From a virus (lineage: Duplodnaviria; Heunggongvirae; Uroviricota; Caudoviricetes), in the IMG/VR virus record IMGVR_UViG_3300010882_000010: a stretch of 64,000 nucleotides of DNA; one strand, given 5' to 3'. Below the pieces are notes generated by a model, which was not told the origin of the DNA, made no database searches, and was given only the letters and a program-made list of their open reading frames with translations. Shown here piece after piece: positions 1,984 through 45,180 of the stretch. The position numbers and the translations under genes were made by a program. How positions within the stretch are numbered: position 1 is the stretch's first letter; the number at the start of each line of letters is the position of its first letter.

Positions 1984-2946
1984 ATGTACATCTACAAAAC
2001 AACAAATTTAGTAAATGGTAAAATCTATGTTGGAAAATGTGAAAATGTACCAGAAAAAACTAATTGGTATTTAGGTTCTGGAGATTTATTACAAAAAGCA
2101 TTTAAAAAGTATGGTAAAGAAAATTTTAAAAAAGAAATTTTAGAAATTTGTGATACTAAAGAAAAACTTAATGAAAGAGAAATTTTTTGGATTAAAAAAC
2201 TTAAGTTACCAAATTTTAAAATAGGTTATAATATTACAACCGGCGGAACAGGCGGAGATACGATATCAAATCATCCAAATAAAGATGAATTATTAAAAAT
2301 TTGGAGTTTAAATACAACAAAAAATAATAAAAATAGAGATTCAATAGTCTACATTAAATCTATTGAAACACGAAAAAGAAATAATAAAAATAGTCATACA
2401 GAAGAATCAAAGAAAAAATTATCAATTTCTCATACAGGAAAAAAGCATACAGAAGAAACAAAAAAGAAAATAGGTGAATTAAGCAAAGGTAATCAATATG
2501 CTTTAGGTAGTAAACGAACAGAAGAACAAAAAATAGAAATGTCTAAACAAAGAAAAGGAATAGTTAAATCTGAAGAACATAAAAAGAAAATTAGTGAAAG
2601 TAATAAAGGAAAAAAGATTTCTAAAGAATCCATACAAAAAGGTTTAGAAACAAAGAAACGTAATGGTACTAATGTTTGTAAAGAAGAAACAAAAACAAAA
2701 ATTCGTAAATCTATTATTGCTTTACAAGAAGAATATCCAGAATTAAAACCTCCATCTTTTAAAGGAAAAACACATACTAAAGAAACTAAAGAATTTTTAT
2801 CTAAACAGAAAAGTGGAGAAAAAAATCCAATGTATGGGAGAACGTTTTTTGAAATTTGGGTTGAAAAATATGGTATCGAAGAGGCACAAAAAAGACAACA
2901 ACAAAGAAGTGAAAAAATTGCAAATTCAAAAATAAAGAAAAAATAA
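1984..2946 (+). CDS. GIY-YIG homing endonuclease with NUMOD3-like repeats
   Basis: N-terminal YIYKTTNLVNGKIYVG, YLGSG, EREIFWI, GYNI..GG; repeated HTEE(T/S)KKK units. Confidence 0.92.
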   Translation: MYIYKTTNLVNGKIYVGKCENVPEKTNWYLGSGDLLQKAFKKYGKENFKKEILEICDTKEKLNEREIFWIKKLKLPNFKIGYNITTGGTGGDTISNHPNKDELLKIWSLNTTKNNKNRDSIVYIKSIETRKRNNKNSHTEESKKKLSISHTGKKHTEETKKKIGELSKGNQYALGSKRTEEQKIEMSKQRKGIVKSEEHKKKISESNKGKKISKESIQKGLETKKRNGTNVCKEETKTKIRKSIIALQEEYPELKPPSFKGKTHTKETKEFLSKQKSGEKNPMYGRTFFEIWVEKYGIEEAQKRQQQRSEKIANSKIKKK

Positions 2947-3353
2947 TGGAAAATAAAGGAATTCCAGAAATAAGGAATGAATCCTATTACAATGTTAAAG
3001 GAAGTTTTAAAGGACTAGATTTTGGTATTTATGGATGGACTGATGTGGATGCTTTACACTATGATCCAGCCACAGGAAAGGCTATTTTTATTGAGGCAAA
3101 AGCTAAAGTTTCTAATGATCCAGCAAATCGTGCATTTTACAAAAATCAATGGAGCACACTTAGGGGACTAACCAAAATTAGTCCAAATTTGATTGTTTTT
3201 ATTACAGAACATGGAAAATTTGCACAAAATGGCGATACAATGTTTTATCATTGTGAAGCAAAAGTGTGGGGTGCTTGGCAAAACGGAGAGTTAATTAACA
3301 ACTATAATGGTATGTTGATTAATGATGCAAGAAGAAAATTTTTTGCAGAATGA
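2946..3353 (+). CDS. small PD-(D/E)xK-family nuclease-like protein
   Basis: TDVDAL...IFIEAK catalytic-type pattern; ATGA overlap with the downstream MTase half. Confidence 0.55.
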   Translation: MENKGIPEIRNESYYNVKGSFKGLDFGIYGWTDVDALHYDPATGKAIFIEAKAKVSNDPANRAFYKNQWSTLRGLTKISPNLIVFITEHGKFAQNGDTMFYHCEAKVWGAWQNGELINNYNGMLINDARRKFFAE

Positions 3354-4255
3354 AATTTTCTAAAATTATCATTAATCCTCCTTACAGTAGTAATCTTCAT
3401 GTTTTAATAGCTGATAAATTGGTTAGAGAAATTGTTGATTTTCAAGATAATGGTTGCATAATTAGCTTGCAGCCATTTCTTAATTTTTATCGAGCAACTA
3501 TTGATATCTACAATTCTAATGACGAGAAACTAATTGAAGAATTTTTAATTCCAAAGATTGAAAAGTTGATTAAAATTAGTGCAGATGAATCAAGGAAAAA
3601 TTTTGATATCCGTATTCTTTCAGATATTGCAATTTTCAAATTTTCAGAGTTAGGTAAAATTAAGATAGGAGAAATTAATGATCTTTGGAAAGAGTATCAA
3701 CTTTTAAACAAAATTGTTAAACACAGAAATTTTAAACCGGTAAAAGATATTGTAGATCGTAATGAGTACTTAGGGATTAGAGTGAATTTTGTTGATGTTT
3801 CTTCTCTTGGAAATAAAGAGATTTGGAAAAAGAACAGAATTTTTACAGATGGATATGATAAGCAAGGTAATTGGTGGGGAAAAGCACCTTACACTAATAA
3901 TCAGTATGTTCATCCAGAACCTGGAGAAATTTTGTACCGAAAAAGTACTAAAAACTTTCTTTCACATCGTTCTAAAAATACTAAAGAAGATTTGATAATT
4001 CCATTCATTGGATTTTTTTCAAGTTTAAAGTGCGAAACTGAAACTATTGCAGAAAACATAGTAAAAACTATGCAAACTAAGTTTGTTACTTTTTGTTATC
4101 TTCATAAAATTGATCCTGTAATAAAGTTACGCTACATACCATGGATAAAAGCAAATTATGAAGAAGGACCTGTAACAGATGAAGATTTTTATCGAATTTT
4201 TGAACTAACTAAAAATGAAATTAAACTAATTGAGCGATATTATGCCAAAATCTAA
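3350..4255 (+). CDS. DNA amino-methyltransferase catalytic + TRD half (motifs IV-VIII, no SAM-binding motif)
   Basis: Begins MKFSKIIINPPY (motif IV at residue 9); GCIISLQP, FDIRILSDIAIF; C-terminal TDEDFYRIFELTKNEIKLIE typical of Eco57I/TaqI-like gamma MTases. Confidence 0.8.
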   Translation: MKFSKIIINPPYSSNLHVLIADKLVREIVDFQDNGCIISLQPFLNFYRATIDIYNSNDEKLIEEFLIPKIEKLIKISADESRKNFDIRILSDIAIFKFSELGKIKIGEINDLWKEYQLLNKIVKHRNFKPVKDIVDRNEYLGIRVNFVDVSSLGNKEIWKKNRIFTDGYDKQGNWWGKAPYTNNQYVHPEPGEILYRKSTKNFLSHRSKNTKEDLIIPFIGFFSSLKCETETIAENIVKTMQTKFVTFCYLHKIDPVIKLRYIPWIKANYEEGPVTDEDFYRIFELTKNEIKLIERYYAKI

Positions 4256-4682
4256 GAAAGCAGAAACAAAAAAGGATTTGTTAGATATTACAGATTCTGG
4301 AGATGTACAACAAAAATTTGAATACAGTAATGCTGATCATCTTGATAAGAAAACCAAACAACAACAGGGTTCATTTTACACACCAAGAGAAATAGCAATT
4401 AAAATGGCTAAAATGTTAGAATGGAAGCCTGGTCAAACTATTTTGGATCCATGTGTGGGTTCCGCTAATCTCATGGTAGCATGTATGGAAGTTTATCCAG
4501 AATTAACAGAAGATCTTCTTTATGGTGTAGATATTGATCCGGAAGCAATTAGGATGTGTATCAAAAAATTTCCAAAAGGTCACTGGCAAGTTGGAGATTG
4601 TCTTAAAGATCCTATTACAAATGATAAATTTTGGGCAAAAGATCCATTCAAACTTTATTATGAAACTAAGGCACTATTTTAG
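4242..4682 (+). CDS. DNA methyltransferase SAM-binding half (motifs X, I, II, III only)
   Basis: GSFYTP, ILDPCVGSANL, YGVDIDPEAI, GDCL; stops before any NPPY; ATG 4242 preferred over TTG 4230. Confidence 0.85.
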   Translation: MPKSKKAETKKDLLDITDSGDVQQKFEYSNADHLDKKTKQQQGSFYTPREIAIKMAKMLEWKPGQTILDPCVGSANLMVACMEVYPELTEDLLYGVDIDPEAIRMCIKKFPKGHWQVGDCLKDPITNDKFWAKDPFKLYYETKALF

Positions 4683-40433: not shown

Positions 40434-41624
40434 ATGAAAAAAAATCTTAATGGGCTCCAGGTGAACAAAAAAGTTTTGTTATCTGATCCCACAGACAAAG
40501 TTTTCTGTCAAGAAGATTATGCACAGGAACTTTACGACAAAATGTTCAATCATTCTAAATTGAACAACAGTCTTCCAAGAGGAGGCAAAGACCTAGAAAA
40601 AGGTCAATTTTTACCAATTACAGACATCTCATCTGTTTCAGAAAATGAAATTTGGTTTGAGGTAAACAACATGACGGCAATTCCGGTTAACATCAACAAG
40701 GAAAAGCGATTTTTTGAGTATTTTGGATACACAAAAGATTCTTTCATTGATTGGGTACGTTTACCACAAGGACGTAAAGAGTTTTTAAAAGAGGAACATC
40801 TAGTTTACATCGAAAAAGCACAACCAAGTCCAAGTGGATCTTTATTTGAAGGATTGCAAAATATTGTTAAAACAGAGTTCTTTGATCAGATTAAAAATCC
40901 AACAAAAGCTTACTATGCAAAAGTTAACAGTAAGAATCAAGGTGGATTTTTCATTGAAGTACAAGGTATTCAAGCATTTTTACCAGGTGGATTAGCAGCA
41001 GCTAACAAAATTGTGAATTTTGATTCTTACATCGGTAAAACTATTCCTGTAATGGTAGAAGATTATCTAGCAGATATTAACACTTTCATTTTCTCTAACA
41101 AGAAGTACATCCAACATGTACTACCAAAATTGGTGGCGGAACTTGATGTTACTAAAAAATTGCAAGGTTTTGTTACCGGTACAAACAAACATGGTGTTTT
41201 CATTGAATTCGATGAAACGTTTACAGGTCTTTTGCATACCAGCAAAATGACACCAGGAACTAAAAAGTATTTTGATGAACGCAGATTTCAACCGGGTGAT
41301 GAAATGGAAGTTTGGGTAATTGAAATTAACAGAAGTAATCAATTAGTACTTTCTGAGTACGAAAGAGGTGCTGAAGAAAACTATGAAAAAAGTTTACTCG
41401 AACAAGGTGTTGTTTATCCATGTGAACTTACAGCAATCCGAGATTTTGGTATTTTTGTTAAACTAACAGGAAATGATAAAGAAGGTAATCCAAGAAAAGA
41501 GATTGGTTTGATACCATCTAAATCTGACAACAATTATCTTTTCAATGTTGGAGACACTACAAAGAAAGTTAGGTTAAAAAACACAAGAGAAGGTAAACAC
41601 TATTTTGAGTTTGCTACAAACTAA
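40434..41624 (+). CDS. ribosomal protein bS1-like multi-S1-domain protein
   Basis: GGFFIEVQGIQAFLPG, GFVTGTNKHGVFIEF...TGLLHTS, AIRDFGIFVKL...GLI. Confidence 0.85.
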   Translation: MKKNLNGLQVNKKVLLSDPTDKVFCQEDYAQELYDKMFNHSKLNNSLPRGGKDLEKGQFLPITDISSVSENEIWFEVNNMTAIPVNINKEKRFFEYFGYTKDSFIDWVRLPQGRKEFLKEEHLVYIEKAQPSPSGSLFEGLQNIVKTEFFDQIKNPTKAYYAKVNSKNQGGFFIEVQGIQAFLPGGLAAANKIVNFDSYIGKTIPVMVEDYLADINTFIFSNKKYIQHVLPKLVAELDVTKKLQGFVTGTNKHGVFIEFDETFTGLLHTSKMTPGTKKYFDERRFQPGDEMEVWVIEINRSNQLVLSEYERGAEENYEKSLLEQGVVYPCELTAIRDFGIFVKLTGNDKEGNPRKEIGLIPSKSDNNYLFNVGDTTKKVRLKNTREGKHYFEFATN

Positions 41625-41636
41625 AAACTAAAAATT

Positions 41637-41671
41637 TGGGGCGATTATCTCAAAAATAGTCGCCCATTTTT
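41637..41671 (+). terminator. intrinsic terminator
   Basis: GGGCGATTAT...ATAGTCGCCC plus T tract. Confidence 0.75.
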
Positions 41672-41674
41672 ATT

Positions 41675-42520
41675 ATGGCACAATTTGACAGAATAATCAT
41701 GAATCCACCATATGGCGAGTTTCATTTTCCAATTTTTAAATCATCGGTTCAAAATTTTATCAAATCAACAGGAATAGTAACAAGTCTACAACCGATGACA
41801 TGGGTTCTTCATTCTTGGCGAGATGATGTTGATTTTGGATACAAAGAATTCATCTCCGAAATTGAAGATTATTGTTTCATTGAACAAGTACTTGATAATG
41901 GAGACGATACAACTTTTAAAGATGTTAACCTCTTTATCAATTTAGGAATTTTCAAAGTTTCGCACACTATTAAAAATCCTAATATCAGAGATATAGTTAC
42001 AACATCACATGGCATTCAATTCAAAAGATTTTTACCATTTTTGAAATCTTCTGGTGTTGATAATATCCGAGTAGAAAAGTTTGATAATCAACAATTTTGT
42101 GTACCATTAAAAACTATGCTCGGTGGTAATGGTAGAGGAATTGAAAGTCATTGTAAAGTAATTGTAAGAGTAAATTATGGAACAATAATTAATGGAATTT
42201 GTTCAACAACAGGAAAGTCTTTAAAAGATTCTAAAACTTCATGTTCAGGTAAGATAGAGGATTGGCCAGTAGTAGTTTTTGATACAGAACAAGAACTCAA
42301 AAATTTCTACAATTTTTGTCATCTTTTGAGTTTTAGATTTTTTGTTCTTTTAGGACAAATCAAAGCACAAATCATGTTAAAATACTTACCATTTCCATCA
42401 GACTACACAAAAGAATGGACAGAAGACAGTTACTTAAAATGGCTAGGAATTTTACATGAGAAAGAATGGATTTTAAATGTCATGAAACAAGCAATGAATG
42501 GAAAGTGGTTAAATTGTTAA
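41675..42520 (+). CDS. second DNA amino-methyltransferase catalytic + TRD half (no SAM-binding motif)
   Basis: Begins MAQFDRIIMNPPY; GIVTSLQP, FKDVNLFINLGIF, LKYLPF..DYTKEWTE. Confidence 0.8.
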   Translation: MAQFDRIIMNPPYGEFHFPIFKSSVQNFIKSTGIVTSLQPMTWVLHSWRDDVDFGYKEFISEIEDYCFIEQVLDNGDDTTFKDVNLFINLGIFKVSHTIKNPNIRDIVTTSHGIQFKRFLPFLKSSGVDNIRVEKFDNQQFCVPLKTMLGGNGRGIESHCKVIVRVNYGTIINGICSTTGKSLKDSKTSCSGKIEDWPVVVFDTEQELKNFYNFCHLLSFRFFVLLGQIKAQIMLKYLPFPSDYTKEWTEDSYLKWLGILHEKEWILNVMKQAMNGKWLNC

Positions 42521-42602: not shown

Positions 42603-44030
42603 ATGGCACAAAAACAGTACACAAGAGAAGAGATTTTACAAGGTAGTAAAATTGGAATAGAGTTTGAATTTTTAACAAACATGGATCCGGTTGATACAGC
42701 AAGAAGTCTTTCAGATGCAATTGAAAAACGTGTGCTTGTTCCTCTAAATGTTGATGAATTCACAAAGTCAGAAGGAAAATTAAAGTATCATACACCAATT
42801 GATTTGGTTGGTATGCCATGGATGTGCAAACTTGAATCTGATTATTCTTGTGGAAAGAAAGGTAATGAACTTATCACAGCGCCTCTTCCATATCAAGATG
42901 CTAGAAACACAATACTTAGAGTTTGCAAATGGATTAAGCAACATGGTTGGACTACAGATAGATGCTCTATGCACTTAAACATCTCATTTGATGATAATTA
43001 CGTTAAAACTAAAACAGAAATTAGGCATATCAATGTTTTAAAATTTTGTCTTGATTTTGATGAAAACAAAGTGTATGCCGAATTTCCTAATAGAAAAGAT
43101 TCTATCTATGCTAATTCCATTAAAAAGTTGATTACCAATAATATCTTTAATACTACGATTACTACTAATAGTCAGTTAATTACACCAAATGAAAAGTATT
43201 ATGGTGTTAATTTTACCAAAGCTTTCAAAGATTACTTAGAGTTTCGTTATTTAGGATGTAAAGACTATGAAAACAAAGTAACTACTATTATTGATATGAT
43301 GGATTATTTTATTGAGTTTACTTTCAACATCTTGCAAAATCCAGAAGTTACTGAAAAAGAAAACAAGGAATTACAGGTTACTTTAGAAAACTACAAAAAA
43401 GTTTTGGAAGTTTATCGAAATCCTATGCTATTAAAGTCTAATTTTCCAAAATTGCAAATTATGGTAGATACTCAAGAAGATAGTAAAATTATTAAAACTT
43501 TTTGGGGTACTATTAAAGATAAAGTTCTTGAAGCACTATTAAAGTGTAATATCCATGAAGGAATTATCAACTATGATAGTGATATTTCAGAATTACAACT
43601 AAAAGATTGTGTTTTAAAATTTGGTACAATTGAAGATGTTACTTTAATTGGTTGTAGTGGAAACGGGTTTGTTAAAAATTGCAAAATTTTTGATTGTAAT
43701 TTTGAGGATGTTAACTTTACCGATTGTTGGTTTTTCACAGGTTCTAAAGTAAAAGACAGTCAATTAAAAAATTGCATAGTAAAACCTAGTAATGAGTTTA
43801 ATAATTGCTACATTCAAAATGAAAAACAATTTCTCTTTGCTGGAATAATGAATGGTGGGGTTTTTAGAAAAGGACCTATTTCAAAAGATGCCGAAATTTC
43901 ATCAAGTACTGATATTATTGAACACAAAGTTGTAACAGCAAATCCAAACGTGAAAAAGTTTGGGATTTACGTTAGCCCTGACAAAGGAACTTTTCAAAAC
44001 AAAAAACTTTTCGTAACAAAAGGAAAATAG
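42603..44030 (+). CDS. putative amidoligase (COOH-NH2 ligase) with C-terminal beta-solenoid repeats
   Basis: IGIEFEF, ESDYS, ELITAPL, TTDRCSMHLNIS, KYYGVNF, LEFRYLG. Confidence 0.8.
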   Translation: MAQKQYTREEILQGSKIGIEFEFLTNMDPVDTARSLSDAIEKRVLVPLNVDEFTKSEGKLKYHTPIDLVGMPWMCKLESDYSCGKKGNELITAPLPYQDARNTILRVCKWIKQHGWTTDRCSMHLNISFDDNYVKTKTEIRHINVLKFCLDFDENKVYAEFPNRKDSIYANSIKKLITNNIFNTTITTNSQLITPNEKYYGVNFTKAFKDYLEFRYLGCKDYENKVTTIIDMMDYFIEFTFNILQNPEVTEKENKELQVTLENYKKVLEVYRNPMLLKSNFPKLQIMVDTQEDSKIIKTFWGTIKDKVLEALLKCNIHEGIINYDSDISELQLKDCVLKFGTIEDVTLIGCSGNGFVKNCKIFDCNFEDVNFTDCWFFTGSKVKDSQLKNCIVKPSNEFNNCYIQNEKQFLFAGIMNGGVFRKGPISKDAEISSSTDIIEHKVVTANPNVKKFGIYVSPDKGTFQNKKLFVTKGK

Positions 44031-44031
44031 T

Positions 44032-45180
44032 ATGGAAATTAGAGGATTTAAATCATATGACCAATTTCTCTTAGAGAAAGATAGTTCAAAAATAATACCA
44101 AAAGAAAGTACTGAATTTGATAAGAAAGTTGGTTTTATCAAACTTTCTCATGATATGAGTGCACTTGATGGAGGTACTACAGGGAGACAGCTTTGGATGA
44201 ATCAAGCAGCTTTAAACAAACTTTATCTAACCTATTCTACTCTTGAAGATTTAGATAAAGATATCAAAGTTCCTACTGATATTCCTATGCTTAATTATGG
44301 CGGACACAGTAAACAAGAAACTAAAGATTTTATCAAAAAACACAAAATACCAACAGAAAATCTTTACAATAAGGGAGAGTTTACTAAGCTTTCAGGTTCT
44401 AAAGTAGAATTCGCAAAAATTTTCAAAGGAAAAGATTGGTTGCCTAAAACTGTTTTTAATAGAGATGAAGCAATTAATGGACAAGTTGGATTTCCTGTTA
44501 TTGCAAAAATCGAAGATGGACATAGTGGATTGGGAATTAAAAAATTTGATACTAAAGAAGATTTAGAAAAAGAACCTAAAACGTTTACACTTAGAGGTGA
44601 TGAAAGAACTTTTGATCTTTACTCACAATTCATCAACTTTGATCGCGAATATCGTTGTATTTTCATAGATGGCAAGTGTGTAATTGTTAATGAAAGAGTT
44701 GATAACATAAAAGAAGACAAATCCATACGAACTAAAAAACTAAATCAAAAATTGAAGTTCATCTATGTTGAACAAGATTTTGATAAAATACCAAAAGAAT
44801 GGTTAGAAAAAGTCAACAAAATTGCAAAAGAAATTTCTAAAGAAATTCCACTTGAAGCTTGGTCGCTTGATATTATTGTAGACAAAGAAGGTAAGATTTG
44901 GGTTTGTGAAATCAATTCAGCAACAGGATTAGGAAGTGGAAAGCTTTGTAAGTACTACATGACTATTTACGAAAATTTCTACAAAAAACAATTACCACAA
45001 GAATTTAAGGATGAGTTGTTTACGAATTTCATATCACAAGGATACATCCAATTTTGGCCAGAGAAAAAGAAAGAAATTGAATCAAGTCCTTGGGCTATTG
45101 ATTATGCAAAAATAGCAAAAGATTATCCAGAAATACCAGATCAATGGTACAAAGACAGATTAGAAGGAAGCAAAAATTAA
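44032..45180 (+). CDS. ATP-grasp ligase (RimK-like) with capsid-targeting-like N-terminus
   Basis: LPKT, FPVIAK..GHSGLGI, QFI..DREYR, SLDII, VCEINSATG; N-terminus FKSYDQFLLE. Confidence 0.85.
   Translation: MEIRGFKSYDQFLLEKDSSKIIPKESTEFDKKVGFIKLSHDMSALDGGTTGRQLWMNQAALNKLYLTYSTLEDLDKDIKVPTDIPMLNYGGHSKQETKDFIKKHKIPTENLYNKGEFTKLSGSKVEFAKIFKGKDWLPKTVFNRDEAINGQVGFPVIAKIEDGHSGLGIKKFDTKEDLEKEPKTFTLRGDERTFDLYSQFINFDREYRCIFIDGKCVIVNERVDNIKEDKSIRTKKLNQKLKFIYVEQDFDKIPKEWLEKVNKIAKEISKEIPLEAWSLDIIVDKEGKIWVCEINSATGLGSGKLCKYYMTIYENFYKKQLPQEFKDELFTNFISQGYIQFWPEKKKEIESSPWAIDYAKIAKDYPEIPDQWYKDRLEGSKN

Follow-up and report, generated by a model that had tools for sequence, protein, structure and literature searches.

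DNA methyltransferases of the TaqI/Eco57I type (Pfam PF07669, together with N6_Mtase, PF02384) are encoded as a single chain in which the motifs follow the order X-I-II-III-IV...TRD, TRD being the target-recognition domain. An open reading frame (ORF) resembling the second part of such an enzyme was studied at positions 41675..42520 of a 64,000-nucleotide window, the whole stretch of DNA analysed here, which corresponds to bases 16388-80387, read on the reverse strand, of a 217.7-kb, 30% G+C virus record in IMG/VR (IMGVR_UViG_3300010882_000010) with an estimated completeness of 75%. The ORF is intact and its 281-residue product, designated P_B, begins with MAQFDRIIMNPPY; it is like the TaqI/Eco57I type in its NPPY motif IV, its C-terminal half of a Rossmann fold and its C-terminal TaqI-like TRD. 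The known enzymes have one chain, whereas here two genes are involved, with the cut between motifs III and IV, the two genes can stand in either order or unlinked, and several catalytic halves can occur with one half that would bind the cofactor S-adenosylmethionine (SAM). On balance, it was considered probable that P_B is the catalytic and recognition half of a split TaqI/Eco57I-like methyltransferase, and that a small subunit encoded at 4242..4682 of the window is common to P_B and three homologous halves of the same genome, P_A, P_C and P_D.

Other described systems share single features of this arrangement. Type I systems are alike in logic, as a common HsdM subunit is used with alternative HsdS specificity subunits, and the use of a distantly encoded HsdS by HsdM has been documented in Helicobacter pylori (PMC3936762). 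However, HsdM has the complete fold and HsdS is without a catalytic motif, whereas here the exchangeable subunit would be catalytic and the common subunit cofactor-binding only; where HsdS has two TRDs and helical spacers, P_B combines a single TRD with an NPPY motif. Assembly of a DNA methyltransferase from two polypeptides is known from M.AquI and M.EcoHK31I, which are naturally two-chain, and from the engineered split forms of M.HhaI and M.SssI (PMC3404938). All of these are C5 enzymes whose cut lies within the variable region or close to it (after motif VIII, or with motif IX alone), each with one fixed partner, and sharing among several catalytic subunits is undescribed for them, unlike what is proposed here. 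Type ISP enzymes are single chains of nuclease, superfamily 2 (SF2) helicase, methyltransferase and TRD. Relatives of P_B do end ResIII-helicase chains, but P_B itself has neither helicase nor nuclease, and most of the bacterial relatives collected here have a separate, downstream cofactor half. Multispecific phage C5-methyltransferases of the SPR and phi3T type obtain several protective specificities from one catalytic core through tandem recognition domains in one polypeptide, a topic touched on in PMC12707154, whereas the arrangement proposed here would give every recognition domain a catalytic subunit to itself, with the cofactor half as the one common part. No published natural cut between motifs III and IV, and no common SAM-binding subunit, was found in a literature search that did not extend to REBASE or to much of the subscription literature, and papers on MANTIS and BREX and reviews of restriction-modification held nothing on such a split. 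An earlier reading of this DNA, made without database searches (the sequence-only reading), had known of no described system of this kind, and the searchable literature agreed with it; the split architecture is apparently undescribed, its chemistry and fold being those of known enzymes.

A structure model of P_B was obtained from an alignment of 87 sequences (predicted local distance difference test, pLDDT, 84.2; predicted template modelling score, pTM, 0.81), which was used instead of an unusable model made from 4 sequences (pLDDT 44.5). The best matches to this model in VIA-align were M.BseCI (7qw5; Z 7.6, root-mean-square deviation (rmsd) 4.6, 220 residues aligned, model 1-263 against chain 124-576), CamA (7lni; Z 7.3, rmsd 4.5, 218 aligned, model 1-259 against chain 156-577) and M.TaqI (1aqi; Z 7.3, rmsd 5.0, 195 aligned, model 1-247 against chain 96-412), followed by PglX, BpuSI and MmeI, all of which are gamma-class N6-adenine DNA methyltransferases. 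Although Z values of about 7 lie in the range flagged for common arrangements, the top matches belonged to one enzyme class and covered most of the model. Each of the top alignments began at motif IV of the enzyme and continued through its recognition domain, and P_B was therefore taken to consist of a Rossmann C-half (beta4-beta7, with the NPPY pocket) and a TaqI-like TRD. Matches to Type I specificity subunits were weak and at the level of the TRD (1yf2, Z 3.5; 1ydx, Z 3.4), and that to the Type ISP enzyme LlaBIII was likewise weak (Z 3.4 over 88 residues). A Foldseek search of the Protein Data Bank (PDB) with the model returned nothing at E ≤0.001 (the best match being PglX, at 1.5e-3), PDB sequences searched with a profile of the four paralogs gave no credible match, and P_B had no Pfam match at E up to 1, the gathering cut-off of PF07669 (Eco57I, 25.3 bits) not being reached.

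The SAM-binding motifs X, I, II and III that mark a gamma-class enzyme are absent from the P_B chain. As the ORF opens 9 residues before NPPY and its stop-to-stop frame has just 5 codons ahead of the ATG, P_B was regarded as a subunit and not as a complete member of this class. With so short a frame, and with a terminator-like hairpin and T run directly 5' of the ATG (Table 1), a hidden N-terminal part is impossible. As modelled, P_B holds nothing able to bind the cofactor alone. It is 16-32% identical to aligned family members, and besides NPPY it retains all further positions that at least 90% of the family share, namely H17, L18 (F in P_B), P40, W43, F82, F202, E207, N210, P239 and W248.

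To place the break in a wider context, a profile built from the four paralogs, P_B being one of the seeds, was searched against 1.84 billion representative proteins. This returned 3150 matches at E ≤0.001 and 1165 at E ≤1e-10; P_B, itself among the four seeds, matched the half profile over positions 1-274 with an E value of 3.8e-102. Best matches, cluster members and ORFs of the loci examined together gave 157 family proteins that were classified. The largest class (92 of the 157) starts at motif IV and was termed half-only; a further 57 have a divergent N-terminal extension of about 100 residues or more without a recognisable motif I, six have a canonical SAM-binding N-terminus, and in two the start of the profile was unmatched. 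A fused half-then-SAM order was not seen among the collected family proteins. As the breakpoint is conserved across the family, there is strong support for the split being a conserved, unannotated family trait and not the result of decay; the sequence-only reading had likewise argued against decay. Neither Pfam nor NCBIfam has a model for the halves, the source annotation of which is hypothetical. The nearest ESM Atlas clusters with recorded taxa were dominated by viruses, five being all-viral and one half viral. HMMER profile searching was needed to see the family, since a word-indexed protein search with P_B returned only P_B itself, and a tblastn search of 50,697 phage records with P_B and P_A as queries gave no match. 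Several family members form the C-termini of ResIII-helicase proteins of 1000-1250 residues, and in one of these (P0050) the helicase-linked half also has an N6_Mtase part in the same chain.

The divergent extensions themselves (P0010, P0017, P0019, P0024 and 53 others) gave no match to the small-subunit profile. Those of about 100 residues, found in forms of 360-420 residues, resemble Rossmann beta1-beta3 but are without the glycine-rich motif I (for example ...TVLLYEL...KYIVIGNE...), and a profile comparison of extensions with the small subunit gave the right strand order at a probability of just 6%.

The sequence-only reading had described two catalytic halves in this DNA, P_A and P_B; the genome has four, P_C and P_D lying outside the window. 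Across the whole record, five NPP[YFWH] motifs occur in open frames of at least 50 residues, and as four of the five lie no later than codon 16 in ORFs that are homologous to one another, the NPPY-first pattern is beyond chance. The remaining points of that description were borne out. P_A and P_B are both intact ORFs that begin at the same breakpoint, with NPPY near the N-terminus and 28% identity over the first 102 residues (BLASTP, E 2e-6); their alignment has the common SLQP, F-D and C-terminal signatures, and the central DNA-reading region differs, being about 10% identical. No SAM-binding gene stands beside P_B, which is flanked by an S1-domain gene upstream and an amidoligase-like gene downstream, neither of which had a methyltransferase match in Pfam.

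The gene at 4242..4682 encodes the sole SAM-binding DNA-methyltransferase module in the 217.7 kb, as determined by protein search, by Pfam N6_Mtase and by a filter-free hidden Markov model (HMM) search over all frames of at least 50 residues. Searches of the record for the N6_N4_Mtase, D12 and C5 families gave nothing except the same small gene, below the N6_N4_Mtase cut-off, and a profile of the divergent extensions of about 100 residues had no match in this genome. On the PADLOC mad2 profile, the small subunit matches positions 259-356 and P_B positions 357-426 (E 0.0061 for P_B), so that the break is exactly complementary between the two. These mad2 matches are informative solely on the position of the break; against MADS MAD2 (NCBIfam NF047738) the small subunit scored 27.3 bits, below the curated cut-off of 720. 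A second SAM-binding candidate, at genome positions 200574..201065 (E 0.0027), was rejected, being an acidic ORF of helical character that has neither motif X nor motif I.

Loci in other genomes were examined by six-frame HMM scans and gene tables. Small SAM-binding genes encoding 110-205 residues were found to adjoin halves in both orders, in phage contigs as well as in bacterial metagenome-assembled genomes (MAGs), and in a third arrangement a ResIII::half fusion is followed by an overlapping small gene (Table 1). The MAGs with ResIII::half fusions were assigned to Candidatus Enterousia, Rickettsiales and other alphaproteobacteria; the fusion proteins have 1005-1254 residues and the overlapping downstream small SAM-binding genes encode 134-205. 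PADLOC has no model for the large ResIII::half protein, and the combination resembles a Type ISP-like restriction enzyme whose cofactor lobe is on a separate chain. A fission-and-fusion model of methyltransferase permutation has been published (PMC3320104), and the occurrence of both split orders alongside fused gamma-order forms fits it. One fused protein of 1113 residues (L027:2657-6350) has an internal SAM-binding segment, residues 735-819, before its NPPY half, and an extra small SAM-binding gene of 123 residues still stands behind it.

Two or three halves with differing DNA-reading domains accompany a single small gene on seven other contigs. Arrays or fragments of up to three halves were seen, and in a second jumbo-phage contig (G006) the sole good small subunit adjoins no half (Table 1). 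Identity between halves of the same tandem array is 65-81% over the N-terminal 48 profile columns, also when motif IV is excluded, whereas in the TRD core it is 13-18% once a near-duplicate pair in L008 is set aside, which is like the values for unrelated records. This is how exchangeable recognition modules carried on a shared docking part would be expected to look. Genes for IS605-type TnpB (OrfB) were also noted inside or beside two of the half-array loci (L008:3099-4325 and L050:2064-3287), which hints that half cassettes are mobile or prone to rearrangement.

The pairing of P_B with the 4242..4682 product was investigated through co-variation, phylogeny and complex modelling. Small subunits fall into sequence types, of which clade 1 has the motif P-x-G-H-F-Q-V-G-[DN]-C-L, clades 2 and 3 being different. 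Halves with the signature NPPY-G-x-x-H-[LF]-[PR]-I-[LF] co-occurred with clade-1 small subunits in all 10 of 10 loci outside this genome, and halves with NPPY-x-x-x-L-H-L-x-I-L co-occurred with clade 2 or 3 in 11 of 11; the unlinked halves and small subunit of G006 fit the same rule, their clades matching. The 4242..4682 product belongs to clade 1, P_B (NPPYGEFHFPIF) and P_C bear the clade-1 signature, and P_D has a signature similar to the one in the L009 half, a half that itself adjoins a clade-1 gene. In a tree of 87 halves, the four paralogs were not mutual nearest neighbours; those nearest to P_B (P0014, P0034 and P0018) all lie in half-half-small-gene arrays with clade-1 subunits.

The heterodimer suggested by the sequence-only reading was modelled as a complex of P_B, SAM and the small subunit. 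It reached an ipSAE of 0.85, the best control reaching 0.01; in calibration, 58 of 80 solved complexes and 2 of 110 mismatched pairs attained this mark. Three runs shared at least 87% of their contacts, and the pLDDT of the partner was at least 71. In the model, residues 4-9 of P_B pair with residues 65-70 of the subunit, placing beta4 against the motif-I strand beta1 in the manner of an undivided methyltransferase sheet, and the interface residues of P_B are 1-13, 16, 19-20, 23-24, 27-28, 34, 36 and 38; the co-varying signature residues lie inside this predicted interface. Since the fold is already known from single-chain structures, its halves would be expected to score well from that likeness, and the complex model was therefore counted as weak support.

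A number of observations weigh against the use of 4242..4682 by P_B. The P_B gene forms a separate transcription unit at a distance of 37 kb from the small-subunit gene, and motif I of the small subunit is G-S-A rather than G-x-G. P_A, the sole half adjacent to the small gene, has a post-NPPY signature other than the one typical of clade-1 partners; moreover, the co-variation counts include closely related MAGs and hence non-independent events. The complex run departed from its calibration in using custom alignments and a SAM ligand, and its pass may only mirror the likeness to the single-chain folds of TaqI, CamA and BseCI. The four halves of this genome are 30% identical in the interface region, as against 30% with halves from other records, so that, unlike in the tandem arrays, there is no within-genome signal of co-evolution. 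Finally, with the record 75% complete, a second small subunit is possible. The claim of the sequence-only reading that one small subunit serves interchangeable halves was upheld to different degrees in its parts: the split family stood strongly, and the search for NPP(Y/F)-first ORFs and motif-I-only genes gave four halves and one small gene in this genome and a widespread family that includes bacterial restriction-type systems. The use of 4242..4682 by P_B was supported indirectly, by its being the sole SAM module and by co-variation, arrays, G006 and the complex model, while extra interface likeness among the four halves was not seen.

P_B could also be a genuine half whose partner is not 4242..4682 but a dedicated small subunit in the quarter of the genome missing from the record, or one borrowed from the host, for instance from a helicase::half and small-gene restriction system. 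Besides the incomplete record and the lack of extra interface similarity among the four halves, the fact that bacteria encode clade-1 small subunits beside helicase::half fusions would favour such a partner. However, the genome already has a clade-1 subunit and P_B bears the clade-1 signature, the relatives of P_B sit in arrays with one clade-1 gene, and no second candidate was found in the 217.7 kb, even with the HMMER filters off. A dedicated partner elsewhere, which the sequence-only reading had named among the findings that would count against it, was thus not seen in the sequenced part, and a different partner is considered unlikely.

Alternatively, P_B could be non-methylating, acting as a site-specific DNA-binding protein (a shield, regulator or decoy) that arose from a methyltransferase half, or persisting as a functionless relic. 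This would agree with the lack of a cofactor-binding part and of an adjoining partner gene, and with the strong divergence from the aligned family. Against it, the ORF is intact within a densely coding region and retains NPPY along with the positions listed above as shared by at least 90% of the family, the model of its fold is a confident one, and the same stand-alone form populates many virus-only clusters; a non-methylating role is therefore judged quite unlikely. That P_B is self-sufficient, binding SAM without motifs X and I-III, is barely credible and found no supporting point, as the model has the Rossmann C-half only, motifs X, I, II and III make most cofactor contacts in gamma-class enzymes such as M.TaqI, and halves across the family come with small SAM-binding genes or with N-terminal halves fused to them.

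In the preferred reading of a shared small subunit, P_B would supply beta4-beta7, the NPPY loop, the aromatic residue of motif VIII and the TRD, and the small subunit would supply motif X, the glycine loop, the acidic ribose-binding residue and motif III (beta1-beta3). Docking of beta4 of P_B on beta1 of the small subunit would then give one seven-stranded sheet in which the cofactor and adenine pockets are rebuilt. The same small subunit would complete P_A, P_B, P_C and P_D, each with its own recognition domain, so that one cofactor module could provide up to four methylation specificities, and the likely benefit to a jumbo phage would be the shielding of its DNA from several host restriction systems for one cofactor module. 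As NPP(Y/F) is an adenine-type motif, the predicted product is N6-methyladenine (m6A). We infer the pairing of P_B with 4242..4682, its activity, the distinct motifs and the biological role from the comparisons above. A broader proposal, of a combinatorial methyltransferase in which one 146-residue subunit serves four scattered halves, the same lobe works in helicase-linked restriction enzymes of gut bacteria, and the family is a living fission-fusion intermediate of the amino-methyltransferase permutations, is regarded as about evenly balanced between true and false.

If the shared-subunit reading is true, a Rossmann-fold methyltransferase would be naturally divisible between its cofactor and catalytic halves, with the cofactor half common to several catalytic ones. 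It would give large phages a cheap form of multi-specific protective methylation and bacterial restriction systems a modular design, and would provide natural evidence for the fission-and-fusion route to the permuted methyltransferase classes. Thousands of phage proteins now labelled "hypothetical", which current Pfam and NCBIfam models miss, would be explained as well, and the finding would improve the assignment of methylomes to genes in metagenomes and offer a natural scaffold for split, programmable adenine methyltransferases.

Table 1. Features of the P_B region, the other halves and small subunit of the same genome, and arrangements of halves and small SAM-binding genes in other genomes. 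Positions refer to the window unless stated otherwise.
Feature	Position or locus	Strand	Details
S1-domain gene	40434..41624		upstream of P_B
Terminator-like hairpin and T run	41639..41674 (hairpin 41639..41665)	+	10-pair stem with 5 G-C pairs; ends the upstream S1-domain gene and abuts the P_B ATG
P_B, putative catalytic/TRD subunit	41675..42520	+	Rossmann C-half from motif IV and TaqI-like TRD; without motifs X, I-III
Motif IV NPPY, residues 10-13, catalytic adenine-binding loop	41702..41713	+	N10, P11 and P12 kept in at least 90% of 87 family members
P_B residues 1-38: strand beta4, post-NPPY signature G-x-x-H-F-P-I-F, helix 14-29	41675..41788	+	predicted interface with the SAM-binding subunit
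Motif VIII-like F-D...IF, residues 82-96, last strands of the Rossmann C-half	41918..41962	+	F82 at least 90% conserved; model strand 90-95
Variable target-recognition core, residues ~100-200	41972..42274	+	10-20% identity to the three paralogs; aligns with TRDs of M.BseCI, CamA and M.TaqI
Conserved C-terminal module, residues 199-274 (F202, E207, N210, P239, W248)	42269..42496	+	near-invariant columns; pLDDT 88-98
Amidoligase-like gene	42603..44030	+	downstream of P_B
P_A, paralogous catalytic/TRD half, 301 residues	3350..4255	+	N-terminus MKFSKIIINPPY; 3' end overlaps the small-subunit gene by 14 nt in a different frame
Small SAM-binding subunit, 146 residues from ATG 4242	4242..4682	+	motifs X, I, II and III only; Pfam N6_Mtase 4e-12, profile 19-93 of 311; proposed common partner
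P_C, NPPY-first half, 261 residues	genome 94083..94868, outside the window	- (L005)	homologous ORF
P_D, NPPF, 316 residues	genome 95806..96756, outside the window	- (L005)	Pfam Eco57I 34.8 bits, profile 73-166 of 171, that is motif IV onward
Order half then small gene	L006/L046, L008, L023, L032, L036, L045/L050, L049; L029/L030		gap of ~1 kb in L029/L030
Order small gene then half	L007, L025, L033, L034, L035		
ResIII::half fusion then overlapping small gene	L009, L037, L039, L040, L042, L043		L009 provirus; L037 250-kb viral contig; L039, L040, L042 and L043 gut alphaproteobacterial MAGs
Array	L008		three halves, then one small gene
Array	L025		one small gene, then three halves
Array	L033		one small gene, then two halves
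Array	L045/L050		two halves, then one small gene
Array	L049		ResIII, then two halves, then one small gene
Array fragment	L044		three halves on a 2.9-kb fragment
Unlinked halves and small subunit	G006, 219.5-kb jumbo-phage contig		three halves at 48-50.7 kb; sole good small subunit at 18.4 kb, 30 kb away

Further observations were made on the genes surrounding the halves. Directly 3' of P_B (window 42603-45180, + strand), the amidoligase-like protein of 475 residues, which matched Pfam Amidoligase_2 at 3.3e-5 and had an additional weak pentapeptide-repeat match, is followed by an ORF of 382 residues. P_C and P_D lie 1 kb apart among structural-looking genes (genome G000:C1:94083-96756; L005:4087-6757, - strand); a gp25-like baseplate ORF comes after P_D, and an ORF of 148 residues overlaps the end of P_C by 4 nt. 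Within the window, an ORF of 135 residues (2946-3353, +) overlaps the start of P_A by 4 nt and had no match in Pfam or NCBIfam. No methyltransferase signal was found in either of these two overlapping ORFs. The nearest ESM Atlas clusters of the 135-residue ORF include small restriction-endonuclease, PDDEXK_14 and Hjc-like ones, all with scores below 0.9 and hence a lead only; this ORF, P_A and the small subunit might between them make up a compact nuclease-methylase cassette. Just 5' of this methyltransferase cluster, an ORF of 320 residues (1984-2946, +), whose N-terminus (MYIYKTTNLVNGKIYVGK) is GIY-YIG-like and whose tail is repetitive and rich in lysine, is probably a homing endonuclease.

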